From the NCBI GenBank assembly GCA_001724265.1, contig MEDY01000044.1:1-64000 (forward strand): DNA of 64,000 nt. The letters run 5' to 3'. Under the pieces are notes generated by a model that was not told where the DNA came from, did no database searches, and was given only the letters and a program-made list of their open reading frames with translations. Both the position numbers and the translations under genes were made by a program. The first letter of the stretch is position 1, and each line of letters opens with the position of its first letter. Source of the stretch: Rhizaria sp. SCN 62-66. Lineage: Eukaryota. Positions 1 through 39,900 of the stretch are shown here, piece by piece.

Positions 1-347
1 CAATTTATTCAAACAACAATCGGACGACGTTTAAAAAACCGTAAAAATCAACCACTATCTCTATAATTTTCGCTCACTATCTGTATAATCGACTGTACAA
101 GGATAATTGACATTGATCAATAATATACAACAACATGCAACCACGCTTAAGATATGAAGTATATTCATTAGGGTACCTGCGGAGTGACAAAGTGTAGATT
201 GTAGTCGACAAATGTGTACGCCTCGATTGTAACACAAATGAGCTGCGAGTTGTATTCTGGAAGAAGACACAACGACAAGTGATATGTAACCGATGACTAA
301 CTAGTACCGCTCTTGAAATGTGCAACTGTTTGTTTTTGTTGTTATAG

Positions 348-3243
348 GCTCAATTCGCGCTTCTCAACTCAGAGCCTTCCAATGCGACTGTTCCATTGCC
401 TTCCGCCGCTGTCGCAGCAGCAGCAACAGCAGCAACTGCAGCAGGCACTGCAATCGCCACTCACATCCTACCGAGCAAACCCAATGTACGTTTTTTTACA
501 GTTGCGTGTTCGTAATTATCACCTTTCTTTGACACTGACAAATGCAGTCTGTGCAAGTTATTCTTGAACACCAAGTACTCATGAATTGTACTGAACTGGA
601 TACCAGAGTTGTATCAGTACTGTAAGCTTAACACGTAAGTTACGATGCTCTGTGACGGTAATAATATTTTCCATCATCTGCGCTCATCTAATTCTTTCTG
701 CACCCCCGAAATCCATTATGTTCTTTTCCCAACTGCTTTGGACCTTTGATACTCGCATAGTACTGCCACCGGCACGACCACCCGATTGAGATCATCAACT
801 GGTGCGACACTTGCAACACCACCGCGTGCGCGCAATGCACATATCTGTTCGGCGAGCACAAGGATCACACGGGCCGCTTGCTCAGCAGCGTGCGCGCTGA
901 GCTGAAGACACGCGCAGAGCAGCTACCGCCGCAGCTGGCTCGCTTTGAACGCGACGTCAAGGTACGGATACACTTTGAAACACTTAAGTATTGCGAATCT
1001 CCCTCATAATAGCGTTTTCAGCGCAATTTAGGTGCTGTGTCTAAGTGTTATTGAGAAGAAAATATCAAGCAAAATTAGCATCTAAAAATGAAGCAAAATT
1101 ATCTCATATGCAATACGTTCTTGCATCGACTGTGTACTTGCAACTCAGGAGCGGAATGTCGATATGACTCACTTCAAGACCGAGGTCGAGGACGCGCATA
1201 CGGCTCTGCTTGACAAGAGCAAGTCCTTCACCGCCCAAGCCGCCGCCCCGCTTGCGACAGTGTTGTCGCAGCTCAAGCTTTACACCGCGCAGTCAATTAG
1301 TGCTGAAGAGAAGAGGCTCACAAAGGCACGCCGCAACCTCGAAGGCGTCAGCAGATCTGTTGCTGCGCCTGAGGTCACGGCAATGGCCGCACTTGTTGCA
1401 GCAAGCCCTGGCTGGCCCGCGAGCGTGGGCCCTGAGTTAAAAATCAGTAACATCAAGTAGTTGGTGAGCGCGCTTTCGCTGTTGACAAGCTTATCTCTAC
1501 AAGCGACGATGAGAGCGACGACGATGAAGACTGCCACATCGACGGTATTGTAAGCGCCCCATCTATTGTTAATTCTGCAATCAAAGCTGTAGATGCGGCT
1601 GCCTCTGTTGGCGTGTCCGTTGTTACTCCTCCTTTCACAACTGTTGCAAGTACCTTTGGCTGCGTAAACGTATCTGTTACTGTAGGCGTAAAGTCGGAAG
1701 GTAGTAACAAAGGTCAGACTCGCGGATTTGGTCAGGTGTGGTTAACAGGAGGCAATAATGATATGAGCGAGGATGCGAATGGAAGCAAGTCTCATGTGGA
1801 GTCCGACGTCAACGCTAAGAACGCAGCAACTATTGCTGGCTTAGAAAACGGACACACAGCCGTCATCAAGGTAGGCCTTCCAGCAGCACTAAACGTTGCG
1901 CCGTCTCAACACAATGCGAATAACACTATAGCAAGCAGCGACACTACTGTGTTGCGTGTACGTTGCGCTGTGTCGTTCCCTGACGTTTTCAGCAGGCGCG
2001 TGCATTGCAGCTGTGCGTTGATGTTATGGCGATTGAGATTGATGCACAAGTCGATGCCAGGCAGCAAAATGTAGTTTTTGCGCTGGAGGCCGAGACAAAT
2101 GTTTGGCAGGTTTGCAAGGTCGATTATGATAAGAGGATTCGTTTGCTAGAGTATGACAAGGAGACGTCGCAGAACAAGCAACGCGCGTTGGAGACTGAGA
2201 AGCTGAGTTGGCAGAAGTGCAAAGCCGATTATGATAAGAGGATTCGCTTGCTAGAGTCTGACAAGGAGGCTCTGGAGACTGAACTAGCGCCGCACCGGCA
2301 ACGAGTTGCTGATGAAGCATATAAAAAGGCTAAAGTGGAAGAGGAAGCCAAGGCAAAGGCAGAGGAAGATGAGGCTCGACGTCAAAACGCGCTGTGGGTT
2401 ACTTCATTAAAGTCTTCTGAATGGGTGGCCGAGTTTTACACGCACATTGCGTGTACTCTTGAGGAAAGCGGCTACCCGCGACGGCTCAATAGTCCGTGGA
2501 AAGCGCTTCCAGCCCCTGCGCGCAAACTTGGCGCGCCATCGTCAGCGGTACTTAGTGCACTGCAAAAAAAGGCGCGTGATCGCATTTTGTCTTACACAGC
2601 ATCAACTTTAAAAGAAAAATCCAATTCGGATTTGTTAATGCGGGCACAGTTTCTTTGCCCTGCCACGAACCAGAAAATCCGTTACAGTTTGGTAATCCGG
2701 CTTGATGATGCAAAGTTCCCCGCCAACGCCGCTTATGTTCGCGCCGCTGCGAGGAGCGGCAACTTGGGCGACTTAGTGCACCGTTTCGTGCCACGTGGCA
2801 ATTCTGCAGCAAAAAAGCTTTATGTCACGCTCTACGACTCTTAGTACAAAGGGGTATGTAAAAAAAAGCCTATAACGCTTCCTGACACTGATATCGTATA
2901 CGGAGAGTATACAGCACCTGGTGCTGACACGAGCCTGATCTATCCAGTCGGCACAGTACTCGTATATCCACGCATTACTGGAACGTCCAGTGGTGGCTCC
3001 CATGACACACCTGTATTCATCGTCTTCAAGCCCTGCGTAGCAAGTCTCCTGGGCGGTGCAGTGCCTGTCGGTTGCGTGATGTCGTGTGTGAAGGGGACAA
3101 CAGCGGCGAAAGCTGACAACAGTAGCATGCCATTCCATGATGATGTGTTGCGCTGTTTTGAGTCTTACTGCAGTTAGAAGAAGTGCTTTCAACAATCCAC
3201 TATCTCATGCTGCAAGTTTGAAAAAATTCATGGAATGAATTGA
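348..3243 (+). CDS. Multi-exon B-box zinc finger / coiled-coil / divergent cyclophilin-like protein (TRIMCyp-like architecture); 5' end uncertain
   Basis: Proposed exons 348-485, 761-961, 1149-1463, 1490-1870 and 1993(or 1996)-3243 have phase-compatible GT..AG borders. Exon 761-961 encodes CHRHDHPIEIINWCDTCNTTACAQCTYLFGEHKDH (B-box). The last exon reads through TAG 2842-2844 and TAG 3175-3177 to TGA 3241-3243, and there is another in-frame TAG at 1458-1460. The 1463/1490 join needs a 26-nt intron or a 1-nt frameshift. Confidence 0.7.
764..868 (+). other. B-box type-2 zinc finger coding segment
   Basis: C-x2-H-x9-C-x2-C-x4-C-x2-C-x6-H-x2-H spacing matches the B-box 2 pattern. Absent from the ORF track because it is an internal exon. 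Confidence 0.8.
962..1148 (+). other. Spliceosomal intron
   Basis: AAG|GTACGG ... CTCAG|GAG, AT-rich, joins ...ERDVK to ERNVDMTHF in phase 0. Confidence 0.8.
1871..1992 (+). other. Spliceosomal intron with tandem CAGCAG acceptor
   Basis: AAG|GTAGGC ... CTGAC (branch-like) GTTTTCAG|CAG; joins the 1613 frame to the 2005 frame in phase 0. Confidence 0.7.
2080..2283 (+). repeat. Intragenic ~105-nt (35-aa) tandem duplication in a coiled-coil region
   Basis: ALEAETNVWQVCKVDYDKRIRLLEYDKE / ALETEKLSWQKCKADYDKRIRLLESDKE / ALETE; the DNA core GATTATGATAAGAGGATTCG occurs twice. Confidence 0.85.
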
Positions 3244-3341
3244 ACGATATATTAGGAAGCGTTTCGAGGTCAATTAGTCAATGAAGTGTTGGGTAAGCGA
3301 CTTAATAAAATAAACATGAAAATCTCGCAACAATCACGAGC

Positions 3342-3974
3342 TCACTCGTTTACTCGTAGGTGTAGGTCGCTTCCTCTCACTGCGTCATACGCAGCGCCGA
3401 GCCAGTTGTTACATTTGCCAGTGTTCTTCTTGCCACCGCTGTTGACGTTAGCGCTACTTTCGGAAGCAGTCTTAGTGTTGTTGCAATCGTTGTCGTTGGC
3501 GTAGTTGTCATCATAAGTCATCGTAGGATCAATGATGGCCGGCGTGATGTCCAATACAATGGGTGCAACCAATGAAGGCTGCGGACTGCAAGGCGCGTGT
3601 TGTTGCAGTGGTTGCGAGTCTTGCGGTGGAAATTGCTGCTGAAGTTGCGGCTGTGGCGCGGCGCGTGACAACGGCAGCTAACGCAGGTTTCGTCTTCCAA
3701 ACGGTTGCGCTTGCAGCACGTTCTCATGTGACATCCGGGGAGCTGCAGACGTCACAGACGCGGAAGCTGCGTTCTACGTAGAAACCAAAACTGACATATT
3801 CTTGCGTGGCTGCAGTGGCACTTGTAACTGCCGACCGCTGAGAGCGTCTCGGTCTGTATGAATTGGGACTCGGTGATACGATACTGGATGAGACGAAAGC
3901 AGAGACAGAGTGTGTCGTCGCCGCAGAAAACGCACAAAAGGCTCTGCAAAGTAAGGCCGATTATACGGCGACAA
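3342..3974 (-). CDS. Hypothetical Gln/Pro/Asn-rich protein or degenerate gene
   Basis: ORFs 3774-3974 and 3342-3671 are one frame, separated only by TAG 3774-3776 and TAG 3678-3680, and end at TGA. The 5' frame is ambiguous and no domain is recognised. Confidence 0.35.
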
Positions 3975-5037: not shown

Positions 5038-5932
5038 AACCAAGGCTCTCTCGCCAACGTCGCTCCACCTGAGACTGCTCACGCAGATGGCGCCACCGCT
5101 GAATCGTCGATCTTGTCGTCGCTGTCATCAGAGTCGTTGACATGGGAGTCCATAATGCAGTTCTCCGGCTGGGAACCCAAGTTTGATGCGCACATTGCGT
5201 GCACCCTCGAAGCCAGCGGCTACCCGCGTCGTCTCAAACGCGACCCATGAACGGAGGAGGTCGAGCCCTTCGCCGCCCCTGGACGACGAGCGGCTCCCTG
5301 CCAACGCCGCGCACGTCCGCGCTGCAATAGGGAACACGCTGGGACGCCTGCTGCACCAGTGCTTTGTTCCTCCGGGGCAAACCGCGGCGTCGCTGCCGTT
5401 CGTGACGTGGTACACTGGCGTGCTCCACTGCAGCTCGTAGACGCTCACGCTGCCGGACAGTGACATCGTCTACGGCGAGTACGCAGCGCCGGCCGCCAAC
5501 GCGGGTGTGGTGTATCCGGCCGGCACGAAGCATGTGCATTCGCGGGCAGTCGTTCCGGTCGACCCACCGTCGTGCGGCGGCGAGTGCGTGGCTGATACGC
5601 TGATGTTCCTCGTCTTCAAGCCGTGTGACGCGACGCTCTTGCGCGGCGCAGTGCCCGTTGACCGCGGGCTGTGCTGCTACACTGACTATGCGCAAGCGAA
5701 GGTGTATGATAGCGGGGACACTCCCTTTGACGAGGAGATGATACGGTGCTTCGAGAGGCCCTGTGCGCAGGAGACGTGCACTACGTACGAGTCAACAAAC
5801 AGGACAGACGTTCATTAGTGTTTATTAGGTTTGCCGAGAGTGACATGGCGCGCACCAGCGGTAATGTGCCTGTACGTGAACGGATTCGGAACTCAGTTTG
5901 TAGTTGCTCTATCGCGTGATGATGAATGCTAA
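5038..5932 (+). pseudogene. Disrupted paralog of the cyclophilin-like family
   Basis: WEPKFDAHIACTLEASGYPRR and LDDERLPANAAHVRAA...DIVYGE...VYPAGT...FLVFKPC...GAVPV...PFDEE match the 2005-3243 exon. There is a TGA at 5248-5250 where the paralog has Trp, and a frameshifting loss of ~58 codons near 5278. In-frame TAGs lie at 5438-5440 and 5816-5818. Both ends are uncertain. Confidence 0.7.
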
Positions 5933-9411: not shown

Positions 9412-9841
9412 GCGCTGTAGTCCGCAGATATACGCCTTCAAGTATTTATAGTATATTTCTACATAGTTACGATTATTTCAAGTCGATTTTGTCTGAATAA
9501 ATCCCGATTGTATTTGTTTATCACAACAAGCATTTGCGTTTTTAAGTTCCCACCACAAACGCTTTTTGGCGAGACTGTCGTGCCGCAAAGATGGCCCGAG
9601 AGACGAGAATTCAGAAGGCAAAATCTACGCTGTCTCGTGTACTAAGACTTATCTGGCACGATATCTGATTGCTAAACCCAATGAATAACGCAAACCCAAT
9701 TTGGTTCACCCGCTGATTCCGCGACAAGCAGTCTCCACCCTTTCTTAAATCCCCTCTGCATCCTCAGCTCTGCGCTACCCCTTCTCACTTTGCACCTGCG
9801 CCCTGTCTTTCCCCGCATCACCTGCCACAGTACCATTCGGT

Positions 9842-10472: not shown

Positions 10473-10509
<37 letters not shown>

Positions 10510-15416: not shown

Positions 15417-18400
15417 ATGAATTCCGCTCTGTCGCCGTTTCGGACTCTTTTGAGGAAGAATGCGACACAGAAGTGGCGCTCTTGCCGCGCTAGCTTCATC
15501 GAATATTTCTTACCTTTGTTATTGTTGTTTTTAATTGGAGTCTTGAAATCTAAAATTTACGATTCGTTTCGCTTCGATGCTGCAGATTCCAAGACGATGA
15601 TTGGTCATTTGGACGCGAACTACGCCATGTTCCAAACCATGTTCCAGACCTCACCATTGTCCAAGTTTGACTACGCGTTCTGCTTTGTCGGCTCTGATGA
15701 TGGTTGGGAGGCGTTCCAGTCATTTACGACCTCACCCACAAACCCTATGTACGCGACACCAGTCCGACTTGCCGATATTAAGCGCTTTAGCTCACGAGAT
15801 GAGATGACTTCACTCAAAGCGACTCGGAGCGATTTGGAGCCGTTCTTGGTTGGCGTAGTTGAGACGATTACAACAACGCCCATCAAGAAGAAATCGACGA
15901 TATCTACTCATGACACCGCCGCCAATAACCTTACCAGGGCCAGTGGAGCTGACAGTGACGTGTTGATGACGTATAACTACGACTTGTATCAGTACATGTC
16001 GTAGTCGTACCGCTATCACCGCGATGACATGTTCGATATGTCAATGCGGTCGTGGGGCACCTAGTCTTATATCTTCATGGGTCCCTTTGCGATCATGGAG
16101 GGCATCCAGGCGCATTTACTGCGCAAGCATGGCGCAGTGAAGTTAGAACATATCAATGCGACTTTGTCCAATCACAGCGCTGTCAGTAACACCAGTGTCA
16201 ATATGACTGATGCGAGCAATGAGCTCAGTATCCTCTCCGTTTCCAAGACATTTTCCTATCACCTTGCCTCTGGTGCGTTGCCCGCCGGAACTGGTGCCAA
16301 GTTTCTCCGTAACGCCGACACTGCAGTCGCTATTTCTATATCAATTGCGCTGTTTATCCCGTTTATTCTTTTGACCTCAGTTGTTGCTGCTGAGAAAGAG
16401 ACGAACATGGTTGAAATGCTTCGAATTGCAGGTATTACGCTGCCTCAAATTGCGTTCTCTTGGGCGTGTTACTATGCAATCGCAATCGCACTCCTTGCGT
16501 TGCCCGCATCATGTATTCTTAGCATCATGTTGATTGAAAACACATCGATGGTGCTGATTTTTATCACACTTTTATTATGCCTCTTCAACATGATCGCAAT
16601 CTTTATTTTAATTTCGTCGTTCTTCTCTTCAACGCGCACCGCACAGCGTGTGTCTGCGCTCATCCTCGCCCTCTCTATCACACTTATTTCTGCTGTCCAA
16701 TCTATGAGGACGCGAATCAGCGACACTGATGTCACAGACTCCGCCCCAGGGCTGCTCATGCTGTCTTTTGCACCGACTGGGATGACGCTTGCAATTTCAT
16801 GGCTGATTTACATGAACCGTGTCACAGTGTCCTCGGTCACTCTGTTGGACACAAACAGCTCTGTGGACGGGTACTCTCTGACTGCAAGCTATCTTGCGTT
16901 GATGCTGGGCACTCTCATTTTCTCTTTAACCGGACTCTATACGTATGCAGTTGCTGCTGCAATGAATGATGGGCACGGTTTATTTTCCGCAATGTCGCAT
17001 CCATTCAAATCCTTTTTTTCCCGCTTTAGCTGCGAAGATAAGAACAACCTTACTAACAGACACTCTTCAACTAGTTTACAGAATGAGGTCAACAACAGTG
17101 TAGAAGACAAAGATGCTGATGATAATGACGATGATGAACGCAAGCTTTACGCACAACCAGCACAATACCACTCATGTGCTCTCATCGAGCATGGTATGCG
17201 TGGCAACATCAAAAGCAATTGTGACACTAACAGCCAGACCTCAGACACTTGTCATGGACACACTGATGAGGACAATGAAATCTTGCGAATTCGCAACTTA
17301 CGCAAGGTGTACATGCCTTCAAACGTCATAGCTGTGAAGAATTTCAACTTAGATATTCACCGCGGTGAACTCTTTGCCTTGCTTGGTCATAATGGGGCAG
17401 GTAAGAGTACAATCTTGAATTCATTGACTGGGTTTTGTCAGCCAACCTCTGGGAGCGCAAGGATTGATGGCATTGACGTTCGTGAATGTCGTAGTATAAT
17501 CTCAAGCACATCAAACAATACGACGAAGAACGTTCACACGAATCGCCATCGTGACACAGTTGCATGGACTTGTATTAACGGCCCTGCCTTAGGTATGTGC
17601 CCTCAAAACGACATTTTATATCCTGAAATGACTCCGCGCGATCACTTTACTCTCTTCGCAAGGCTGCGCGGTGTGCCTGCTGAGCGGCTGAACACAGAAG
17701 TCGATCGGTGGCTTGCTGCTTTAAATCTCTTAGACTTAGCAGATACACACGCCGCCGCCGCTGCTGCTGCTGCTGCTGCTGCCGCCGCCACAGCAGCTGC
17801 TGCCACATCAGCAACTGTACAAGTCGAGCAGACAAAACCTCCCGCACAAAGTTTGATGCTGAGCTACACGCAGGGTAACAAAGGAGCCCGAGGGCGTGTT
17901 GTCGCTGATGCACCGACAAGTTCGCTCTCTGGTGGGCAGCGGCGGTGCGTGTCGCTGGGCATTGCGCTGATCGGCGACCCGAAGCTGGTGATCCTGGACG
18001 AGCCGACGGCGGGGCTGGACGTCGCGGCGCAGGCCTCAGTGCGCGCGCTGCTGCAGGAGCAGCGCAGGCACCGCGCGATCCTGCTCACGACGCACTCGAT
18101 GGAGGAGGCCGAAATCTGCGATCGCATTGGCATCCTTGCCAACGGCTCGCTGCAGACCGTGGGCTCGAGTCTGTTCCTCAAGCGCACGTTCGGCGCCGGG
18201 TACACGCTCACAGTTGTAAAGGCACCCGAAGTGACACTGACTGAGACGGCTGCACGCGGCAAGAAAGCCGTTGCCGCAGCAGCCGCGGCGCTTGCCGCGC
18301 TGGAGCCAACAGCTGCCGAACTATCTGTTGAGAATTTGACGCGAGTGCGATTAACACCATCAGGACGTCGCATTGCGCGCGCGCTTTCGTCTGTTATGCC

Positions 18401-21400
18401 CAGCATTGTCCCACTTTCGGATATTGGTGGGGAGATGACGTTCGCGGTGCCGACCAAAGCTGCGTCGCATTTGTCAACGTTTCTCGAGTCTTTGGAGTGC
18501 ACCAAGGAAGTACTAGGCGTGGAATCGTTTGCTGTGTCAACAACGCCGCTTTCGGATGTATTCTTTACAGTAGCTAACGCTTCTGTGGTTGATGAAGACG
18601 CTCCAAATGCTGTGGTCTCGATTCCGACGGTGCAAATTAAGACGAATGATTTTGTCGCTGATAAGAGCAATAGGACGAGCAAGATCAATCGCGACAACAC
18701 ATGTGTCCCGAGCGAGACAGTAAACGTCAGTGACATGGACCCCTCTCTGAATGCGTCAAGTTTGACCGCCAAAGATATTCGCACTGCATCCTTTACTGAG
18801 TCCAGCAACGAACGCATTAAAGCCAGGCTTCGCGCGGCTGGGAGCGGTAAAGTCGATGCCGGTGCAGATATTAATGGGTTTTACCAAAGCGACAAAGATC
18901 TGTGGCAAGATGACTTTGCTGGACGCCGTCTCTACGGCAAGTCGTTGTCATGCTCGATTTTCCGCGCACTGTATTGCAAGCGTGCGCTGGTCGCAAGGCG
19001 CGATTTTGGTTCAACTTTCTCACAGACCATTGTTCCCATTATTGTGCTCATTGCGGTTTTTGTTGCGATTATGCTCGCTGCTGTGCCTATCTCAAGTTCA
19101 CGTTCTCGTGTTGAATTTTCACTTCAGAAGTCTTATGGTAGTAAAGAGGTTCTACCAGAACTCCCACGCTTTGTGATGCCTCTATTTACAAACACCACTG
19201 ATGACGGCGATATGCTCCGAAACGATTTTGTGCGGTTCAGTGACTTGAATGTCGACGCTATGATGCCGACTTCTGGTGCTATGGACGCTTCACGGTGCAA
19301 CCTTACTGATGCATACGATGACATGTTTCATGATATGTTTGCGACTGATACCGAGTTTCACATCGCGTTTGGGGTTGGCCAGTTCTGTCAAGCCCGCAAT
19401 ATTTACCCGAACGTGACAACAAGCACTATTCGTCACAGTAACTGTAGCATTGGGACCCCTTTTGTTGCAACAGATGGTGACTTTGCAACGAGCGTTATTC
19501 ATTCCATGTTGCTCATCAACACGTCCGTCGCGTTATCACTCCCTATTGCAACAACAGGTATTACCAATGCTTTGCTTGCTGGTGCACACAGCCGCCAATC
19601 AGCAGCATTGCCTGAAGGCTCTGCGAAGCCTCCGTTGGCCCAACTTACAGCCAGCCACAATATTCTGGGCATTACCGCGCGTTGGATTTCGATTGATGTC
19701 TTTAAGGAGTATGTGTATGTCGCCAACATTGTAACTGGTATTATGATGATCCTCGCTTCGACGTTTGGCCACGTTATTGTCATCGAGCGAGTTAACTTTT
19801 CCAAACAATTACAGTTGGTATCAGGTGCCTCAGCTTGGTCATACTGGCTTGCACACGCAATGTGGGACATTACAGTATCACTGTTTGTTGCTGTTCCATG
19901 CATAGTTATTCTCTGTTTATTGTCTATGCCTAGTTACACGATTGCTCTGTATATGGTTGCATCGTTTATGCTCATGATCATGTCCTCGATTGCGTTGGCC
20001 TACTGTGTCGCACTCTTTGCGCAAACTCCCAGCAAATGTCAAATCTATCTCTATGGTATCCACGGACTCTCAATTTTTACGTCGATAGGCTTTTTTATGG
20101 CCTTACTATCTATCGCCGAAGATACTGACACTTTCTCGAAGGTGATGTTGTATGTCAACTCCGTGTTTTATGTTATTAACATTTGCATCTTTCCAATGGC
20201 ATCTTTTGCAATCTTTAACTCAGTGTTTGTGTCCTCTGCACCTGCATCAGATTCTGTAATTCAGGTTCTGTTGCTTGGCGGTGCCGTCTCCGTACTACTT
20301 TACACGGGATTGCTTATTCTGTTTGAGAAGCGTACACGTCAGGTTCGTAAACTATTGTAACCCTATCATCGTGTTCGATCTTGACACGCTTTAATTGTCT
20401 GAACATGTGTTTGTCTATTTTTATTGTGAACTCACATGCATGATTTTCCTCACACTTTTGTTTCGTGTTGATTCAGGGCGTTGCGGATTGGGTCTCATGC
20501 TCCCGTCCCCCCGTTGAGCTTGTCAACCCAGCGCGCTCTGAGCAGCAGCCGGCGAACGAAGACCCCGACGTGGCGGCCGAGCGCGAGGCCGTGCTCAACG
20601 GCGAGCGTGAGAACGCGATGTACTACCCCGTGGTGTGCTACGGGCTGCGCAAGGTGTTCCCGCCGCGCCGCTCCCCGCCCGCGCCCGCGCACGTGGCCGT
20701 CAGCGACCTGCACTTTGCCGTTGCAAAGGGCGAGTGCTTTGGCCTGCTGGGCTCAAACGGCGCCGGCAAGACGAGTGTGCTGCAGATGCTCACGGGAGGA
20801 ATGCTGCCCACGTCAGGTGCTGCCACTGTCAGCGGTTTTGACATCCAGACTGATTCTGAGGACGTCGCTACTGTCGTCGGTTACTGCCCTCAGTTTGACG
20901 CCTTTGTGCCACAGCTCACAGGCCGCGAGAATTTGGAGTTATTTGCCCGCCTGCGCGGCGTATCTGGCGAGCAGACAAAGCTGTACGTGGCTGAGCTGCT
21001 GCGTCACCTCACGCTCGAAGGCTGCGCGGACCGCCCCGCCCAGACATACTCCGGCGGCAACAAGCGCAAGCTCTCGGTGGGCATCGCGCTTATTGGTAAC
21101 CCGCCGATCGTGATCCTGGACGAGCCCTCGACCGGCGTGGACCCGCAGGCGCGGCGCTCGATGTGGCGCCTCATCTCGTCCACGATGGCGCGCGCTACAG
21201 TGCATCGGGCGCACAGCGTACTTAAAGAATAAATACGGCGGGGGACTTCTCATCTCGATGTCTAGCGCAAGCTCAGACGTGCTTGATAGGGCTGTTTTAA
21301 TGCTGCAAGAGCATTTTCCCAAGGCTGTTGTCAAAGGGAAGCGCGGCGTCACAGTCAAAGTCTTTCTCCCTAGCACCCTCGCTGATACAGTTGCGACGCA

Positions 21401-27557: not shown

Positions 27558-30365
27558 TCACAGCCGGCGCGCAAGAAAGTTGTAGTACCGGATCCGCGAG
27601 TTCGTGTCGCACGCCGCCGCACCGCCTTGACACAGGGCCTCAAACCACGTCATGACGGTCTCGTCGAACGGGTGGTGCGGACTCGGCTGCTCAGCAGCAG
27701 GCGCCGCCACAGCATCTGGTACAGTTGCGCTGGCTGCCGCGCGGCGGGGGATGTGGGCGTTCTGGTCTACGCATGCCACGACGCGGCCGACGGGCACAGC
27801 GCCCGCGGGCAGCAACCGCGCCGCGCAGGGCTTAAACGTCACGAAGCAGAGGATATTTTGCGGGGCATTGAACACGTCACCGAGCGGAGGCAGCACCGAG
27901 CGCGCGCACATCAGCAGCGTCCCCGAGGGGTACACCACGTCCGCGTCTCTGTCTCCTACCAGCGCAGCGGCCTCCCCGTAGATGAGGTCCTCGGCGGGCA
28001 GCGCGAGCGGCGCCGCCGCGCAGGGGGCCTTGTGACGATACAACGACACGTACGGCAGCGCCGCAGCGTCGACCCCGGCTGGCGCAAAGCACCGGTGCAC
28101 ATATGCACCGAGCGCGTACATGCGCGTGGCGGCGCGGAAATGTGCGGCGTGGGTGGGAAACGCGTCGTCGTGCAGCGTAACCATAAGGTGGTACATTGCT
28201 CCGCTGTCCTCCGACTGCGGCGGCGTAAAACACGCCACCATCACGACGTGCATGTCCGTGCCCATGCAAGTGGGCCCCACTGTCGCCAGCGCCTGCAGAC
28301 GCACGCACTCGCGCGCGCGCGCTTGCAGCAGGGCCAGCGCAACCGCCGACGGCGCTCTGCTTTCCGTGGGCGCCAATGCAGTGACTGTTTCTGCGCCACC
28401 GGACGCCGGGTAGCCACCGCGCCGCAACACGGCCGCAATGTGCGCGTCAAACGCAGCAAGCCAGTCGCCCCCGTGCGCGGCAGCAAACGCCCGCACGCCC
28501 GCAACAGCCTCCTCGGGGGACACTGCAACAGCAGCAGCGGCGCGTACACTGGCAGCGTCCGAGCCCGCAGGAGTCGACGCCAGAGAGAGCAGAATGGACG
28601 CGGGCGCGACCCCAGCGGCGGCCAGCGCAGCCTCAAGCTCGCCAAGAGCGAGGACAACAGAGTCGGGAAGCTCATCCGCACAGCGCAAGAGAGCAATCGC
28701 GTGTTTGCCGTGCGCCTTCACGAAGTCTACCAGAAAGTCGCCATGCAGAGGCGCATTGACTTCAGCTTCCGCCCCGGCCTCAGCGTCACCGCTAATGCTA
28801 GCTTCCGCGTCGTCAAAGCCGTTGTCGTCGTGGGGTGCAACCAGCATCCGCAGCACCGCGAGTGCGCGCGCGACGGCATCTGTGTTTGTCCCCGCGTCGA
28901 ACAGCGCGGCCGCCAGCACAACGCGCACGCAGAACAACACGACACCGCCCTCGCGTAGCGCCGTGCGCACACACGCGGACTGCGGCCGCTGCAGCGCGTT
29001 GTCGAGCAGCAGCGCGAGCTCGGTGGCCAGCGCCCAGGGCTGCGGCTCTGTCCGCGCACCGCGCGCGGGCGCTCCCGAGAGGCCATGCGCAAGCACGCTC
29101 TGCAGCAGGCCCGCCGAGACGAGGCGCGCGGCCAGCGCGGCGGGGCCGGCGGCAAGGCGCGCGACGGTGGCCGCCAGGAGGGTCTGCATGGGGGCGCTGA
29201 GCATGTACCAGTTGTGGTCGACAAAGTCAGCGATTGCGGTCACCCGCGGCGCCGTGAAGACCGCGGCGCAGAGTTCGCCGTCGAGGTCGGCGGCGCAGCG
29301 CAGCAGGCGCACGGCTGTAAGGGGCCCGTTTTCAACGCTGCGGGACGGAAGCAGCTGCAGCACGCCGTCAAAAGCAGGGCTATGCAGAAACGCAGCAAAG
29401 TCATTGCGCAATGAGTCGTCGTCCGCGGCCACGCCGTCCGCAGCAGCACGTTGATGAGAGGTAACATAATTAGCGTCATCGGCGGTGGGGACGTGCAAGG
29501 GGACGGTGTGCAAGGGGGCAGTGTGCATCATGGCGGAGGTAAGAGCCGTGATAAAGAGGCTGGCGAGCGCGGCGTGCGTGAGGTGCACCGCGACGCCGAC
29601 CTGGTCTCCATCGGCGGCGGCGGCGGCGTAGCGCTGAGCCGCCGCGCTGAGCAGCGGGACGAAGGGCGCGAGGTCGGCCGCGTAGTCCACCCGCATTTCA
29701 GCCGCCGCAACAGCAGCCACCATCGATGTAGTAGCAGCAGACGCAATTGCAGCAGGCGCAGCTGCGGTGGCGGCGGCAGTTGCGAGGAGTGACATGACTT
29801 GCGCAATGGCGTCCGCGCAGGTGCGGTGCACAGCGGCCTTGCCCAAGTCCTCCGTGCTGGCGTGCGCGGGGTCCGCAAGCAGGATGCGGGTCACATCAAG
29901 CAAAGGCCGCAGCGCGGCGCTGCTGGCGACGCGGGGGCGCAGCTGAGGCGTGCTCTGGCGTGCGGTCTGGGCGATGATGCCGAAAGCCATAGTGGCAACA
30001 TGGTCGCTCCATCCGCAGCGGCTGAGCCAGGTCAGAAGATGTTCGGCAGCGCCGCAGGAGACCATGGCCGCGCTGCCTGCGGGAGTTGCGTTGGCGACCC
30101 AATGTAGCAGACTGGCGGACTCGCTACAGCGCTCGGTGCTGCCGCTGCGTTCCTAGCTGTTCAGTGACTCGACGATGAAGTCAAACAAACCGCTTTCGTC
30201 GCCAATCGCGACACATTTATCTGTGCTCGAGATTAGAGAGCTCCTGGCAGAGTACAACGCAGAGGTATGAAATGCCCGCATCAGAGCAAGTAGTCCTTTG
30301 GAGCCAGGAACAAGATTGTACGTCACTGCGATCGCCGCGTGCAAGGACCCAATGTCGAACTCCAT
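27558..30365 (-). CDS. ARM/HEAT-like helical region fused to a divergent cyclophilin-like domain, 935 aa
   Basis: ORFs 30153-30365 and 27558-30065 are one frame joined through TAG 30153-30155. ARM-like segments: MVSCGAAEHLLTWL, LVSAGLLQSVL, LREGGVVLFCV. The C-terminal domain is homologous to 2680-3215 and 5279-5790. TGA stop. Confidence 0.8.
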
Positions 30366-30918
30366 TGCAACGTGGCTTAGCGCACTATCTCTTTCAAATC
30401 TGCTTGCTAGACTTTAATATTAGCGGGGTCAGATGGTACATAGTAGAATATACACGCGTGTGAAATATGATTATGCTATATTTCTTTAAACTCACACAAA
30501 TACGCACCCACAAGAGCCTGCCTGCGATTTGCAAGGCGACGACAACTGGGGTGATTAGTTAACTTGATTCGAAGTGTGTAAACAACCAGAAAGCAAACGA
30601 ATAACACACGTAATTAAAAAAGTGCAACCTAATATATTCTATTCGTATGACACGCGTGTTGTGTTGACGATATGATCGTGCTACCCATCGCGTTTTGCTC
30701 AAGCTGTCTTTTCTTAAAGAGAAGAAGAAAACGTCTGTATTAAAATTGATGTTCTATGAAGGGAAAAATATCTATAAAAGTTAAGTATCATGTCTCGTTG
30801 GATATTGTTGGTAAAGTTTAAGGATGTTATATTGAACAATAATGTGCTGTTTTGTTATAAGTTGGAGCAGTTCCATGCAACGTTAAACAGTTGCACCTGC
30901 ACTCTCGTCTTCGTTGTT

Positions 30919-33900
30919 TCAATTGTTCTCGCCATCATCCTTCGCAACACTCGCAGCTACATCAACAGATGTGACTTCCGCGCTGTTCACGGGACCATTC
31001 TCAGCGATTTCACCAGCAGCGACATTTACAATCGCAGTAGCAGAGCCGGTCTCGCTCGTAACACTGCCAGTATAACTCGCAGTGACCACATCGTTGACAG
31101 CAGCAGTCATTTGCGTAAACGCTGCATCTGCGTCGGTCGCAGGTTCCGGTGCGGCCAGTTTCTCCTTGGTAGGATCATTGACATCGTTGTCACCAGCAGG
31201 AGCCACACCAGGCGTATCTCCAACAGTGTTATTAGGGGCAGCGGGGTCGATTGCAACAGTAACAGCAGCAGCCGTCTCATTGCCCGCCGCGGTTCTCCGG
31301 TCGTCAGCAGGAGCGGCTGCTCCGGCGATAGCAGCGATTTGTGAAGATGTATCGACACTGTCCATTACCTCCATCGGTTCAATGGGAGCTGGCGCATGTA
31401 TTTCAGTGGCGTTCTTCTCGACATCAGCACTCTTAACCTGAATCTGAACGGCCGATGCCACTGTCTCATAAACGGTAGCGTCTGCAGCAGCTTCGATACT
31501 GGCAGCAGCCTCATTGCTCTCTGGAACGTCGTTGACGACGGCTGTTGCAATATGGGACTTTGTGGCTGAAGTGGCGTCAGGCACAGATACATTTGCAACC
31601 GTCTTAATTGCAGGGCCTGCATTAGGAGTAGCTTCAGTAACATCAGTATCGTCTGAGTTGTTCGAGTCCGTGGTGCGCTTGGCCACATAATCTGCCGCTT
31701 CAGCACCAGCAGCAACTGCAGACGAAGTCTCGACCCGCGCAGTTCGAGCAAGGCCAGTCTCTGCAATTGCAACGTCACGAGCTTGAACAACAGCTGGCCC
31801 ATCAACGGAGGCAGCTTCAGCGGTGCCTACTTCGGCCAGAGCAGTGGGAGCACCGGCTTCAGCGGCAACCTTTTGAGAAGCAGCAGCAGCTTCAGCACCA
31901 CCAGAGCTCTGAATGCCGACCGCGTCATCAGTCGCAATATCCGAAACGTCAGTCTCAGGACCGGCCTGCGCAGGTTCAGCTAAAACAGCAGCTGCAACAG
32001 TTCCATCGGCAGCTGAAGTATCAGCAGCAGCAGCAGCAGCAGCAGCAGTCGCTTCGACAGTCGTCGTGTCAACAGAAGCAGCGGCAGCAATCTCGGCTGC
32101 AGCAGCGGCTGCCTGCGCGGCAGCGGCGGCGGCTTCAACCTCTGCCTTAGCCTTGGTTTCCTTGGCCTCTTCTTCAGCTTTGGCCTCTGCTTCAGCCTTA
32201 GCCTTGGCATCTGCCTCGGCCTTAGCTTTAGCCTTAGCTTCAGCCTCAGCCTTTGCCTTTGCTTCTGCCTCGGCCTTTGCAACAATTGCAGCTTCAAGCG
32301 CTGCCTTAGCAGCGGCTTCCTCTTCCTCTTTCGCCTTTGCCGCCGCAGCTGCCTTGGCCTTCATGGCAACCTCCGCAGCCGCCCTTGCGACGGCCATCGC
32401 CTTGGCGCGCGCGTCGGCCTCGGCCCGTGCGTTCACTAGGGCGGCGTCAACGTGGACTCCGATAGCAGCGGCCGTGCGGAGAAGCCAGGTTGTGGCGTCA
32501 GTTAGTAGCGCAGTGAGAGCACGTGCATGAGCCAAAATAGCAGCAGCACCGTCAGGCGTTGACTGTGAGTCGTTGAAGTTCGTATTGCTTGTGGGTAGCT
32601 GTGGGGGGAAGTACGAGAAGCAGTGGGGGTCGTCAATGAACTCAATCACGTCGACAGCAACCTGTTCATCCTCCTCTTCATCGTCAACCGCGCGGTCGCC
32701 TTCAGTGTTGGACTCATCGCGATTAGACGCGGCAAGCTCGTCTTGCTCAGCAAACGAATCTCCGAGCAAGCCGTGCTGTGGATGTTTCTGGGTTAATTTC
32801 ACATGCTGATTAGGCGGATGTTGCGAGCGTTGTTGATGCTGCTGGGAAGAGAACGCACCGTCCACTCTGGGCAGACGCTGTAGGTCGATTTGAGACACAG
32901 CCGAAGGCCCCAACAGCGGCGTGAGCGCTTCAGTGCCTGATCCCACCGTTGACGTTGACGCAGGCGCTGTCGCCTTAGCGTCAAGTAACAGGCCAATCTC
33001 ATCTAGCTTGGGCTCAGAACCAGTGGACACCACCACAGCGCGACGGCGGCGGTTGCGTTGACGCGATGCAGCAGGAACCTTTGCAAATACGAATTCGTCG
33101 CGTGAGTTCTGACGCAGCATGCGCACCTCAAGTGCACTCAGCAATGCCAAAGGCGCGGCTGTACGTGCGCGTTCAAGCGAATGCGGCAGAGCCAGTGTTT
33201 GCGGGGTAGTAGCTGCAGTGTTGGTCGCCGCAGTTCGAGATGTGGAAGGTTTGAGGGAGGCAAAAACGGCGTGCGACATAAGAAGAAGCGTTGCAGCGTG
33301 AGTTAGTAGCGCGCTCGCGTCGGCAGCAGTTGCAGACGAGGCGACGGCAGCAGCTAGCTGCAGAGGGTCGGCGGATGTCGCGTTGTTGATCTCCGTCGTA
33401 TCAAACATATCCATTCCAGCCTGCACACATCCCTCATCGGCTAGATGAGTGACATCGTGGTTGCTGTCATCGTCAGCAGTCGCAGTGCGGGAGACTGCTG
33501 CGGCGACAGCTTCGTGTTGTTGCATCGCCCAGCTCGCGGGCTCTACCGCCAAGCGCGCGAGGGTTTGCGGATAGTCAATCCACAAGTTTTCATTCGCACC
33601 CTCAGTTGAGTCATTTTTACCTCCAAGCAACACTGAAAAGCGGTGACGCGACGCGCTGTCACATGCACAGTCGGCAAGCATCCTCCTGAGCGCAGGCGCA
33701 GCCTCGACGTTCGCATTCCACCTCGGCGGCGCGCCTGCAGCGCTTGCGGCCGCAGCTGCGCGCGCTGCTGCAGTAGCTCGCGCCGAAACGCTTGCGTGCG
33801 TCAGCGCAACCTTCTCCGCATGCGCACAGGGCGCCGCGGCCGCAGCTGTTGCTGACAGCATGGCAGTCACGGCTACAGTTGCGGAAGCCAGCGCTGCACG

Positions 33901-36900
33901 CGCACGCGCGTGCGCTGCAGCGGCAACAAGGAGTGCCGCAACATCAGCGGCCGAAACCATACCTGGCCCGGCGGTGGACGGTGGCGCAAGCATGACCGAA
34001 GTACGGCGGAGCGCAAAGGCTGGCGAGGTGAGATGGGCTGCAAGCCCGCCTTGCCGCGCGGCAACAGAGAGTAACGACGGAGGCGAGATGGTGTCACCTG
34101 AGTGCTGAATGATGTTAGACATCACTACGACGAGCGCAGCAGGGCCATTGGAAGCATATACCGACAGCGGGCGCTGGAGAGCGGCGGCAACGGCGGCGGG
34201 TAGAAGCGCGGACACAGGTGGCAATGGCGCGGGCGGCATCGCGGCCAGGGCGAGCACGGTTACGTCAGCTAACGTTGCGTCCGGGCCCGAAAATGCGGCA
34301 GGAATTGGGCCGTTTGAGAGAGCAAGTGCAGCTTCAGATACGCCGGACTCGGTGGGCGTCAAAAGCGCAGCGAGGCGAGACAGCAACAGCAGACCCACAC
34401 CCAGACTTGCACCGGCCGTGGACCTGTCATCGCCAGCGTTCGCTAATTGCTCAGATGTTAAGCTCCCCTCCGGCGGGCGTGCACGGCTGACAGGGGGCCG
34501 CGGGCGCTGATTCCCAGCATTATCACCCATGTTTTCGTTGTTGGCGTTATTATCGCTGTTCGCAGAGGCAGGGCGGCCACGCGTGCGGTTTTGGCGGCGT
34601 TGGGCGGGAAGCGCCGAAAGCAAGTAGTGCCTCGGCAGCGCAATTGTGAGCAGCGACAGCGATGTGATGATGTCGTTCAGTGTCTCCACAGGGACAGTCA
34701 CAGGTGCCTCAGCAATGGTGCGTAGCTGCATCGCTGTAGTTGGACTCGCGCCTTCATTCGCGGCGTTAGCATCAGCAAGTGCAGCGGCAGCATTTCGCGC
34801 GCGCGTAATAGCCGAAACAAGCGCCAGGCCAAGACCGTTGCGCTCCGCGGCGGGTGCCGTCAAATGCTGCACAAGCATCAGTACCTCCGTGAAACCGGTC
34901 AGCGAGCGGGGACGCAAGCGCCAGCGCTGAGGGCCGCTTCCGTCATTATTATCGGTAACGACGACTTCGTCCGTAGCTGCACCGTCATCCTCACCGTCGC
35001 GACTCGCGACGCGTCGCTGCTGTGTGGCAGCTGAGACTGTAGCTATCACGGAGCGCAGAAGCGCGGCAGCTAACAGGCCTTGGCTCGGACCACGCTCTAT
35101 GACGGAGGCCGGCTGTGGTGCTGGTGTCGCTGTGTCTGTGCCAGCATCCGCGACAGCAGCAGCGGCGACAGCAGCGTCTGTGGCGTTGAGAGGAAGCCAG
35201 TGCGCGAGAGCTGGGTCCTGCGCCACCCGAGTCCACAGATGCTGCACTGAGTCATTCACGCGCACAGTCACCGCGCGAGCCAGCGGGTGCGTGAGCGGCA
35301 GCGCGGGGTGCGTGAGCAGCGTGATGATGTAGTCCAGCACCGCGCCGCGGGCCCACGGGTCGCTGGCGCTCACGGCGCCACCGCCGGTGTTGAGGCCACC
35401 AGTCGCAGTCTGCGCGGTCGAAGGCGCAGCACCAGCGCCGTAGCGCTGGCGCTGAGCACCACCCGTGGCCGAGGTGGACACCACAGCGTTCTGTGACGCA
35501 GAAGCAAAGGTTGCACTCGAAACCGACCGGAGGTCAATCCAAACTGCGTCGTTTGCGCTCAAAGCACTCGCACCAGCGTCAGTGGGTTGAGATACCGATG
35601 CGACATGACTGTCCGCAGTTGAAACTGCAGAGGACACAGCGGGAAAGTCAAGCGCAGGAGAGGCTGCACTCGAGAGAACTGAGGCAAGACGCGAGATCGA
35701 TGCGAAAGGCGTGTCTGCAGTCGCAAACAGTGCGACTGCAGCGCCCGCGAACGACTCGCTCTCGTCATCGTCGTCAGCTGCCCCAGTGCGCTGGGATGGA
35801 CCCGAGCGTAGACGTGAGCTCCGGGGCCGGCGCGATGCAGCATCAGGGCCAACTGTAAGCGCGCCACCAGCAAACGCTGATGCAGTGATCATTGCGCCGA
35901 GGCCAAGGCCCGGTGACAAAGTAGCAAGTGACGACACTACACTCGGTGCGGCCGCAGCCGATGATGCCGCACGGGCGCAAAGTGGCCGCGCGTAGGGCCA
36001 AGGCCATGCGGACTGCGCAAGCGCGGCAGCCAGCGACGCGGTCGGGACAATGCGCGGGTTGGGCGCATCCATGTTAGCAGACAGTGTAACCAGTTCCGAA
36101 ATCGTCCGCGGGCTGTATGCAGCCATATTTCCGCCCGCAAGACGCTTCCCAGGCTCACATGGCACTGCAGGACTGACCGAAAGCAAGAGAGAGCCAGAGC
36201 GCGCGTCTGGCGCAAGAGTCATGCTGAACAGAGTCATGGCAGCAGTGAGCGGCGAGAGAAGCGTAATTGCAGAGGCAACGTCAGACAACGAACACAGCTG
36301 CGCAACAGTCTGTGCGACCGTAGTGCACACAGGTGCGGCGTCGGGGTTCGTCTCCAGCGTCCAGCCCACGGGTACAGGCGCTGCTGCAAGGGCTGTGGCA
36401 AGCTGCGTACCCACCAACCGCGATGCCAGCGAGTCTGCCACTGCAGTTTGACTTTCAGACACTAGCGCTGTAGCTGTACTCGTATTCTGCGCATTGACAG
36501 AACCCGCATTACTCGCCATAGCTATTGCGCTCCAGGCACCGTGCCTCAAAGCGTTTTCGAGCGCTGCTATACGTTCGCCCTCAGCAGGCAGCAGCACTTC
36601 GCCACTGGCGCTGATTGTCTCGCGCTCAGGTGCACGTTGGAGCGCAAGCGCAGTTCCAGGTGCCGGGGCGACGTTGAAGCCTGCAGCAACGCTCGCTGGG
36701 AGGGCAGATGAGAAACTTGCGATCGAACCATTATACGCCACTGCAGAACCAGAGTTCAGGTTAGCGACGCGCATCACGGAATGGACACCAGGGAGCTCGT
36801 CACTTGCCGCCAACACGCAGTAGCTACGCAGCAGCGTATCTAAGTCCATGGCCATTGACGGAGGCATCCTGAGCGATGCATGTGCAGCGTTAACTGTAAC

Positions 36901-39900
36901 AGCGTTAACGTTTGTGAGTGTCATACCAGACTCAGAATCGTATGTCGTCATAGAAGTCATCGGAACTGCGGGGGCGGTGGCGGGCTCACGAGCCATGATC
37001 AGTGAATCCTCAAGACTCGTCGTTGCAAGAACGTGTGAGACAAGACGGCGCTCTGAAACTGCGTATACACAGCGGGTCGCGCGCATGTACAACAGCGACG
37101 AAAGCAGATAGGCAGCGCCCAATGGCTGCGCAGACTCTTGCGGTGTAGGAGTCGCCGCGTGAGCAATCGCGGAGGCACGAATGGCAGCAAGCCTGTGCGA
37201 AGCAACACACGCGCGCACGCCGGTCGCCACCGCGTCCGGACTCCCGCCGAATTCAGCGCACACGAAGGCCCATTGCAAGGCAGAAAGCCCCCAGGTCGAC
37301 GAGGATGATGTCGCCTGAGGAGTACCGGTCCAAAGCTCAGCAAGCATCGACGTGGAAACGGCAGAGATGACGGGCGGCTGCACAGCCGCAGCAACAGTTT
37401 CAGACAAAGCAAACGCACAAATCGTGGGCATAAGCACGGATAACAACGATGTTCCGGCGCCGCGAGTTGAAGCGACCATAATGTCATGCGCAGCCATCAC
37501 ACCCGCGAACGGCGGGGCTGCTGCGGCGATAGCAGGCAGCGCAGGGAGCGCCGAGAGCTCGAGCGGCGAGATACACGTGCGGGGTGACACACCGAGCACG
37601 GCCGATGTTGCGAGCGCGGGACCAGACACGACTTGGGAACGGTTAGCGTTGAGCTTCGTGGCCATCGCGGCAGCGTCGTACCCCGCAGTGGCTGCAACGG
37701 CGCTGAGCGAAACCGCAGCGGGGCCCATGGCAGACGGATCGGTTGCGGCAAGGTAGGAAAGCCAGCGCTGCAGCGAGGCTGTAAGCGGTAGACGTGGACC
37801 TGTCGCAACACCATTGCCAATCGACGTCATGCGCGCGTAGTCTTCTGCGACCTCAGCTGCGTCCGTTGCTTCTTGTGCTGTAGTAGAGCCACGCCTCGTG
37901 TTCGCCGACGAAACATTGTTAGTAGTACCAGTGACATGAGGAGAAAATGAGGTCGAGACCGTGAAATTTCCTGTGCTTGGTGATCCTGCAAAGGCCCATG
38001 GGAGCGGGAACGAAGTGTAATAAGGCATCAGCAAAGCGTCGAGTGCGGGTGGCGGCGGCGGCACAAGCGTTGCGCCAGTCGCGCTTACGGGGATCGACGT
38101 CGCAGTCAAAGGCGGCGCTGCAGGTCCGCTAGCCGGCGTGAGAGAAGCGGGAACCGTGCCTGGTACGAGGGCACCAAATGTGGCCAAGTTGCGCACTTCC
38201 GTCTCAGCCGCCAGCGCAGTGACGCCACTAACAGTGCCTGCGCAGCGATAAGTCGGCGACCGACGCAGGGCACGCGAGGCGCGACGCATCGCCCGTGCAC
38301 GTGCACGGTGCAACGCTGCGCCAGCAGTGTCATCATCGTCTGCGGACACGGCTGCAACGGTGGCCGAGGTGTGCTGGTGCATCGAATCAAGCGCGGCACC
38401 AAGTGTTGTCAGCAGACCTTCAGCGCTACCAGTGGCAAAAAGAACGTGGTCGATCTCACAGTCAGTGAGCGCAAACAGCCCCGTCAGTAGTTGTTGCGAG
38501 CGCGTGCGCGGATCGATCGGGGCCGCTGAAGCTGCCGCGTAAGGAGCATACGTTGGCCCACCACCTTCACCGTCAGCGTCGTGGGCTGCACTTTCATGCG
38601 CCTGCGGCACAGGCGGGGGCGGACCGGGTACGCGTCGCGGCATGGTGAGCGACAGCGCAGAGCTCAAATACAAGCGCGCGTTAGCCTTCGTGGCACCACC
38701 AGCGCCGTAGCCGTACTGGCCGAATTGGTTGCGGCCTTGCGCTGTGGCGTTACTGTTGTTCCCAGTACTACCAGTTGTGGATGGGTTGGGTTGGTTGAAA
38801 AAAGCAGCACGTCCAGCCCGACCACCGTTGGCAGCAGCATTCTGTGCAGCAACTTGTGCCGCAGCTGATTCAGAAACAACATGTGCCTCGTTGGCAGCAG
38901 CAATACCAATGATTGTGTCAATGCTTGCGGCCTCTGCAGTGGGCACGCCTACAAACGCGAACAAATCAGCCCGCGACTGTGCAGAGACGAGCCAGAGCGA
39001 AAGCACTTCGCGAACCTGCATGCGCGCACGGCTGTGGCGGTCAGCGACGGCAAGGAGAGCTTCAGCAAGCTCGGATGTTGTCAGGAAGCGAGTTAACGGC
39101 TGCGGAATTGTCGGCATCTGAGATGAAGCACCTGCAGCCGCAGCGGTCTTAAGGTGTTCAGTGACTGCGAAAACATGAAGAGCGTGCGGAATGAGGAGTT
39201 GCCAGAGAAAGAACGCGCACAGCACGAGGTTATTATCGCATGCAGCAAGTAATGCATGCGCCTCCGTATGCGTGATCACCTCGCGCAGGGGCGGGAACCT
39301 GAACCAGAGCGGGAGCTCGCCAGTCTTGAGGAATGCAGGTGCCACAGCGGCCGAGTCGGCCCCGTCATCGTAGCCCGGCTGAGCTGTCTTGCATTGAACA
39401 AAGCCGGGAAAGCGGGTCAAGTAGCCAAGAGTTCGCTGCAAGAACGGCCACTTTTCAATCAAAGCGCGAGGGATCTTCCCACCAGTGACAAAGTCGCTAA
39501 TGATGCCAGCTGCAAGTGAGTTGTAGCTGTTCACAGCACCCTTCGCTTTGGCGCGAAGCTCAGTGACGTGATGAGAGGCGTCATCGCCATAATGACGGCG
39601 CAGCGTGCGCTCAGCAGCCACGGTCGCGCGGTGCGAGCGCAGTACAGTCTCGACGCTCGAGTCTTCTAGAGAGAAATAGGCGTAGCTGTTGGCGCACGGG
39701 CGTCCATTTCGAAGGTTCATCATGAACGCCATCGTACCGTCAATCGCCATGCTACTGCCGACGCCAGTACCCGTCGCAACGTCTGCCGCGGGACCACCGT
39801 GCTGAAGCGCACCACCCGCAGCGGCCGCAAAGAGATTACCACCAGTGAGCGAGTTGCGACGGGCAAGGAATGGCGCACTCGGTACCATCATGACGCCACC

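Follow-up and report, generated by a model that had tools for sequence, protein, structure and literature searches.

TRIMCyp proteins of primates and rodents carry a retrotransposed, nearly unchanged cyclophilin A. According to passages in two papers, TRIMCyps arose independently several times (PMC2924388, PMC6677749). In RING-less TRIM-like proteins, a B-box is directly followed by a helix of about 100 residues, shorter helices, and a variable C-terminal recognition domain. As for genetic codes, UAG alone is reassigned in the nuclei of Rhizaria sp. exLh, Iotanema spirale, and some phyllopharyngean ciliates. Precedents of UAG-only reassignment are documented in passages of PMC5304391 and PMC11687900. 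Here I describe a gene at positions 348-3243 of contig MEDY01000044.1 from Rhizaria sp. SCN 62-66, which can be compared with all these systems. The window denotes the whole stretch of DNA that was analyzed, 64,000 nucleotides in length. Taken as a whole, the gene is rather likely to be a damaged member of a family in which a B-box and helices precede a divergent cyclophilin-fold recognition module, in an organism that translates TAG. Its family is a new, divergent one within the cyclophilin-like fold, and the architecture is new as well. A literature search on a B-box combined with a cyclophilin-like domain in protists found no such protein described in the excerpts retrieved.

The C-terminal 285 residues are encoded by 2386-3240, a frame that is open only when the TAG codons at 2842 and 3175 are translated. 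The first-pass annotation, which proposed a TRIMCyp-like protein here, quoted a series of peptide strings as cyclophilin motifs; with TAG translated, frame 1 of 1984-3243 contains all of them. A set of 1.84 billion representative proteins includes 77 relatives of this domain at E<=1e-3, 67 at 1e-10, and 41 at 1e-30, well beyond what chance would give. Many of them align from residue 2 to about residue 280 and span the two TAGs, at residues 153 and 264. P0003, a standard-code gene call identical to the window, stops at the first TAG (P numbers denote database proteins, and L001-L032 are loci of one Joint Genome Institute (JGI) metagenome). Decoding of TAG as a sense codon, which is most likely here, would explain why a standard-code translation seems to break the domain. 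The 32 loci came from a pattern scan, and all 10 relative clusters examined are of metagenomic origin only. A viral or prokaryotic origin of the family was considered and rejected, no relative having been found by the pattern scan in viral contigs or prokaryote genomes. Intact members would be single proteins of about 800-900 residues, forming a family specific to an uncultured activated-sludge eukaryote.

The structure of the C-terminal domain was predicted with AlphaFold from an alignment of 44 sequences. The model is one confident domain (mean predicted local distance difference test score (pLDDT) 89.6, predicted template modeling score 0.90) in which three N-terminal helices are followed by a barrel, with the last strand lying past the second TAG. 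In a Foldseek search of the PDB, nearly all of the 50 matches listed are cyclophilins or cyclophilin-containing complexes, with E values from 6.8e-4 to 6.6e-3, probabilities mostly of 0.94-1.0 (0.99 for the best row), and target-normalized template modeling (TM) scores of 0.44-0.58. The two aligners used, Foldseek and VIA-align, both listed cyclophilins almost exclusively, with 119-155 aligned residues on targets of mostly 127-200 residues. A full-length model of a 50%-identical relative has the same order of strands and helices; an ESM Atlas model of another relative, P0002, is poor (pLDDT 0.36) and gave uninformative hits. Thus, according to the models, the domain has a cyclophilin-like fold without a sequence-detectable relation to cyclophilins. 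It shares the barrel with cyclophilin peptidyl-prolyl isomerases and with cyclophilin-like-fold proteins such as 3kop, TM1367, and the KipI C-domain (Foldseek, VIA-align), and it has the same order of strand-helix-strand motifs as the isomerases. It differs from the latter in staying below all sequence thresholds tried, in its long inter-strand insertions, in its N-terminal helical extension, in an atypical conserved His/Cys set, and in the catalytic Arg position, which by motif order is not conserved.

The first-pass annotation placed a B-box zinc finger, coiled-coil-like helices, and this domain in one spliced gene. The B-box was verified; window 761-961 matches the Pfam family zf-B_box (PF00643) at an E value of 3.6e-5 and 24.3 bits, a marginal pass of the cut-off of 24.1. 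A match at the equivalent place in L003 reaches 22.8 bits, slightly below the cut-off, and one of the 44 alignment members has a match with an E value of 0.0012. The linkage of the B-box with the C-terminal domain also stands in the family, though not the neat splicing of the window copy (see below). P0007 (833 residues) begins inside the B-box and extends in a single frame through the whole domain, and the frame of L003 (900 codons) contains, in order, the B-box, a long helix, a Cys-rich middle region, an Ala-rich helix, and the C-terminal domain. In the AlphaFold model of L003 (mean pLDDT 64), one helix spans residues 41-143 (pLDDT about 60-81). Short helices and a middle region of low prediction quality come next, and a helix of about 140 residues (472-613), the counterpart of window 1990-2385, leads to the confident C-terminal domain. 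The stretch that matches window exon 1149-1457 is a long helix as well. Intact members would read, as these models and frames order the parts, B-box, helix of about 100 residues, Cys-rich middle, long Ala/Glu-rich helix, three-helix bundle, and cyclophilin-like barrel. The B-box/helix part would be an oligomerizing scaffold, as in RING-less TRIM-like proteins. A complex prediction for two copies of P0007 residues 1-200 gave a score of 0.17 and a mark of 0.32, which weighs neither way.

The barrel-plus-helices module appears, from the frames that carry it, to be mobile within the family. It is also found behind long helical N-termini without a Pfam family (P0009, P0013, and the third copy in the window), behind a plain coiled coil, and, in one of the 44 members, behind a protein kinase (Pkinase, E value 4.6e-7). 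A ubiquitin domain lies downstream of the module in L013 (E value 1.4e-24; L013:5-960) and L031 (E value 2e-26; L031:1-810). L031 shows an unusual combination, since its ubiquitin is followed by a Peptidase_S74 domain of the intramolecular-chaperone kind and by a coiled coil.

The 5' part of the window gene seems well supported as to its two introns, 486-760 and 962-1148, since relatives are continuous over the second and share the position of the first. In L003 and L011, as in the window, an AG acceptor and AT-rich, stop-filled sequence stand immediately before the B-box. Thus, one or more further 5' exons probably exist. The candidate exon 348-485 has no supporting relatives, and the spike in read depth at 414-448 stems from a simple repeat. 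As had been noted from the letters alone, no RING is visible by eye in window 1-760, and a C3HC4 pattern search found a RING in none of 17 family frames. The 5' exons beyond the sequence examined could encode one. If translation of L003 began at its ATG there would be no RING, but this reading was rejected; a TAG lies eight codons in and is likelier to be the end of an intron.

How does this architecture compare with TRIMCyp, its closest analogue? In both, one polypeptide combines a B-box, a long helix after it, and a cyclophilin fold at the C-terminus, and the gene belongs to a locally duplicated family. In contrast to TRIMCyp, the domain described here is without detectable cyclophilin sequence similarity, has its own three-helix extension, is shared with partners that lack a B-box, and is separated from the B-box by an extra Cys-rich middle region. 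The domain is not a captured cyclophilin of the primate TRIMCyp kind, given the lack of similarity to any Pfam or PDB cyclophilin, the extension, and the kinase, helical, and ubiquitin partners. The predicted order of B-box, helix of about 100 residues, shorter helices, and variable recognition domain resembles that of the RING-less TRIM-like proteins. The differences from them are that the B-box scores lie close to the cut-off (24.3 and 22.8 bits), that dimerization is conjectural here, and that 5' exons may hold a RING.

Reading TAG through, on which the completeness of the C-terminal domain was said to depend, is indeed needed and is consistent with the other genes of this organism. In tblastn matches to the window and the 32 loci (16,512 codons), 28 TAG, 9 TGA, and 4 TAA codons are in frame. 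Of the 13 stops other than TAG, eight are genuine gene ends that the alignment ran past, one results from the frameshift at 1988, and four are internal. If the count is restricted to stops of the loci with open frames of 150 codons or more on each side, it comes to 11 TAG, one TGA, and no TAA. The family genes end with TGA in 19 cases and TAA in 10 cases and never with TAG (31 alignment rows reach the domain end, of which two leave the contig). Two unrelated genes of the window behave alike. In an ABCA-type transporter gene, the frame is kept over two TAG codons (16002 and 16062), 60 bases apart, which separate the N-terminal helix from the remainder, and a single TAG (CAA TAG CAA) at 40108..40110 on the minus strand joins open frames of 7963 and 3062 codons. 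L031 has a TAG inside its full-length ubiquitin match, where its paralogue L013 has Gln. It is very likely, as judged from these frames, that TAG is decoded as a sense codon in this organism. Over 23 sites, the BLOSUM scores of the residues aligned to TAG sum to 10.1 for Glu, 7.9 for Gln, and 0.2 for the next amino acid, so the codon probably specifies Gln or Glu. Translation would terminate at TGA and TAA. As in the UAG-only nuclear codes, TAG is in frame and TAA and TGA end genes; the differences are that the residue may be Glu or Gln here and that the nearest named ABCA relatives of this organism are just 30-39% identical.

The window copy itself has probably become a pseudogene recently. 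It lacks about 108 codons that P0010, L001, L003, and L004 possess; the deletion junction (1458-1462) created the TAG at 1458 and is confirmed, with no differences, by a 258-base contig from run X1. Contigs from run X4 part from the window at 1459, and what follows in them does not resemble it; as read by eye from the letters of the loose ends, this could be the segment lost here, retained in a longer copy. Window 1462-3173 is 81.5% identical to L001 at the nucleotide level, and of the 11 gaps between them only the one-base loss at 1988 breaks the frame; an X4 contig over 1839-2207 has no gap. All 43 other members of the 44-row alignment have a Cys that is missing from the window copy, which also has F118V, P145L, and R230C at highly conserved columns. 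These two frameshifting lesions are at odds with the claim of a neatly spliced gene. The segment 1464-1992, first taken for an intron, is a homologous coding remnant, as shown by the identity to L001, a 207-codon open frame, and a ratio of nonsynonymous to synonymous substitution rates (dN/dS) of 0.34 against L001 (segment 1463-1989). The acceptor-like TTTTCAG at 1992 owes its existence to the one-base loss at 1988. A further copy of the domain at 5143-5932, where a TGA at 5248 stands in place of the Trp of a close relative, appears from its frame to be more clearly dead than the copy at 348-3243.

Several residues of the C-terminal domain are nearly invariant among the 44 aligned members, namely His132 (43), the next Cys (43), Asp169 (42), Glu174 (42), Cys217 (43), and Arg230 (40), as well as Gly173 and a GAVPVGRV stretch. 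By motif order, the conserved His would lie on the strand that corresponds to the cyclophilin His-Arg strand. At the position after it, likewise placed by motif order, T is found in 16 rows, R in 11, Q in 8, K in 3, and others in the rest. This polar set is unlike the active-site set of cyclophilins, and may correspond to a surface for binding, to a metal site, or to another kind of catalytic site. The helices-plus-barrel module would recognize ligands or proteins rather than act as a prolyl isomerase. The dN/dS was higher in the module than in the scaffold in each pair compared: 0.65 against 0.32-0.34 for the window copy and L001, 0.62-0.68 against 0.35-0.51 for L003 and L004, and 0.86-1.29 against 0.21-0.49 for L003 and L011. 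The size of the family, local duplication (three copies in 30 kb), dead copies, domain shuffling, and the ubiquitin and kinase links are traits that suggest a recognition family. An antiviral or sensor role is a possibility, for which the higher dN/dS in the module than in the scaffold is the single hint. It is quite unlikely that this unsampled protist lineage with a sense UAG has independently evolved a TRIMCyp-like immunity, a fast-diversifying, locally duplicated family whose private module, outpacing its B-box/helix scaffold, would recognize proteins from viruses or intracellular parasites and hand the targets to ubiquitin-linked or kinase effectors.

Some results count against the reading given above, and they are best weighed together with the alternatives. 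For the fold, they are the sequence searches. In the Pfam check proposed for the recoded domain, Pro_isomerase (PF00160) did not match any piece of the window even at E<=10, and none of the 44 aligned members matched it at E<=0.01. A phmmer search of the PDB gave no hits at E<=10, a profile search of the PDB gave 13 weak hits with no cyclophilin among them, and when the family profile was aligned with E. coli PpiB and PpiA in hhalign, the probability was a non-significant <0.1. The domain first proposed as a cyclophilin is therefore one at the level of the fold and not at that of the family. Could the fold itself be a prediction artefact, or a chance likeness of a generic beta-barrel? This is highly improbable, because two independent aligners give almost purely cyclophilin lists, the model is confident, its strand and helix order is reproduced by the 50%-identical relative, and the best local profile alignment to PpiB, non-significant as it is, pairs only the first strand-helix motif and lands on the equivalent one. 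If the fold is accepted, the module may still be an active enzyme, a prolyl isomerase or another catalyst built on it. The loss of the isomerase activity and active site would follow from motif order, which leaves room for this. The fold matches include several kinds of enzymes, such as Pictet-Spenglerases, as well as KipI-type proteins; a nearly invariant polar set is retained across the family; and several conserved residues would lie, with placement by motif order, on the sheet that forms the active face of cyclophilins. Nevertheless, no enzyme family is matched at the level of sequence families, the Arg after the conserved His is found in just 11 of the 44 members, and the raised dN/dS and the many fusion partners fit a binding module better. 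An enzyme is thus quite unlikely. The dN/dS values come from three pairs, one of which has a damaged partner, and the low dS of the module (0.07-0.22) makes its dN/dS noisy, with gene conversion possible.

The two remaining alternatives concern the frame. TAG might be an ordinary stop, with in-frame TAGs marking pseudogenes or truncated products of a decaying family. In close pairs, K, L, E, S, and Q are found opposite TAG, each one base away, as fresh nonsense mutations would also give. Clearly decayed copies exist, with the TGA at 5248, frameshifts, and internal TAA or TGA in L017, L026, and L028, and no tRNA with a CUA anticodon, and hence no suppressor tRNA, was found in the 64-kb window or the 32 loci (96 kb). 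This account has to be set against the excess of TAG, 28 against 13 other stops of which only four are internal, and the ratio of 11:1:0 among the stops flanked by long frames. In frames of 750-930 codons, TAG is the sole stop triplet and no frameshift occurs, a TAG is included in a ubiquitin match of full length, and none of the 29 family genes whose end is reached terminates at TAG if it is read as sense. The ABCA gene with two TAGs and the 11,026-codon frame with one, neither with TAA or TGA, are unrelated to the family. An ordinary stop is accordingly improbable, and TAG as a sense codon is retained. With TAG as sense, the window copy could even be intact, if 1464-1992 were spliced out (GTGAGC...TTTTCAG, phase 0 to 0) to give a shorter B-box/helix/cyclophilin-like product without the middle region. 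The GT and AG sit exactly where both frame changes need to be bypassed, the joined 1463/1993 frame is open, and the other two introns of the gene have similar splice signals. The putative intron is, however, 81.5% identical to the coding sequence of L001, lies in a 207-codon frame, and has a dN/dS of 0.34, and its acceptor arose through the loss of one base. The 258-base poly-A RNA contig crosses 1464 unspliced, though that run also has unspliced introns and may contain DNA. Its low-depth contigs span introns and intergenic DNA without any splice joint, so that the run is uninformative on splicing and expression. The loss of the near-invariant Cys, together with R230C, P145L, and F118V, also argues against an intact copy, which is unlikely; a recent pseudogene is the preferred reading.

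The features of the window are collected in Table 1. All public runs carrying this stretch are labeled as activated-sludge or wastewater metagenomes. The window has eukaryote-like traits, including spliceosomal-type introns and a G+C content that varies from 48% to 75%. Stretches of 63-75% G+C at 8000-14000 and 22000-30000 contain long open frames on both strands and in several frames, and adjoin stretches of 48-52% at 1-6000 and 14000-22000. Contigs over window 1-4200 are mostly just 90-95% identical to it (190 of 291 in run X4 and 63 of 88 in X1), and the sample thus contains many close paralogues or strains of the B-box gene. A Gln/Pro-rich open frame (3342-3980, minus strand) lies directly downstream of the B-box gene on the opposite strand. 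It has relatives at the same position in L002 and L007, which indicates that the neighborhood is kept between paralogous or orthologous loci.

Table 1. Features of the 64,000-nucleotide window, grouped by gene
Feature	Position	Strand	Evidence or remarks
Candidate upstream exon	348..485	+	Low-complexity, Ala/Thr-rich; AG at 346-347 before, GTACG at 486 after; sequence only
Intron immediately 5' of the first B-box cysteine	486..760	+	GTACG...CATAG; stops in all frames
B-box zinc finger exon and beginning of long helix	761..961	+	Pfam zf-B_box; tblastn to P0007 residues 1-57, E 2.4e-10
Intron, phase 0	962..1148	+	GTACGG...CTCAG; stops in all frames; P0007 and L003 uninterrupted here
Helical (coiled-coil-like) exon, frame 3	1149..1457	+	tblastn to P0010 residues 1-98, 51% identity, E 5e-24
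Deletion junction TAGTT	1458..1462	+	About 108 codons of P0010, L001, L003, L004 absent; frame 3 to 2
Remnant of family middle region, frame 2	1463..1989	+	Within 207-codon open frame 1451-2074
One-base loss relative to L001	1988..1988	+	Frame 2 to 1
Charged helical segment with tandem duplication of about 30-35 residues (~2104-2208, ~2209-2289)	1990..2385	+	Translation; second blastn match
Three-helix N-terminal extension of C-terminal domain	2386..2616	+	AlphaFold helices 2-8, 13-27, 53-74; conserved in family
Cyclophilin-like beta-barrel (predicted)	2617..3240	+	In-frame TAG 2842-2844, 3175-3177; TGA stop 3241-3243
Second, more decayed domain copy	5143..5932	+	Match 5143-5779; frame change, about 58 residues absent, two TAG
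Third copy, 951-codon frame	27561..30413	-	Long helical N-terminal region; domain 27768-28475; TAG at 30155; TGA end
ABCA-type transporter gene	15418..21232	+	ABC_tran twice, ABC2_membrane_3
Giant open frame	30919..63999	-	At least 11,026 codons; leaves window end; ends in TGA

Among named proteins, those nearest to the ABCA transporter belong to plants, insects, and oomycetes, at 30-39% identity; all closer relatives are of metagenomic origin. Short introns that would remove both of its TAGs were sought by eye, and no GT-AG pair preserves the frame. There is an apparent short intron after 20342, and the second ATP-binding domain is apparently shortened near 21190, perhaps via another intron. 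The giant open frame encodes 20% Ala and has no signs of introns, and no Pfam family was found in the 7,060 residues scanned. Rfam gave no matches in the window. ARAGORN called a 98-base tRNA-Pro (CGG) at 9966-10063 on the plus strand in very GC-rich DNA, which is absent from the Rfam report; the call is probably spurious or intron-bearing. In the 32 loci the tRNA scan detected none.

These results add a family-sized, sequence-orphan branch to the cyclophilin-like fold. They also provide an arrangement of B-box, helix, and cyclophilin fold outside animals, which would have been built from an old lineage-specific module and not from a captured cyclophilin A. Given its many partners (B-box, kinase, helical regions, and ubiquitin) and its faster protein evolution, the module is a candidate recognition domain. 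Finally, this uncultured wastewater eukaryote very probably reads UAG as an amino acid, and standard-code gene calls in public metagenome catalogues would then truncate its proteins, as in the case of P0003.

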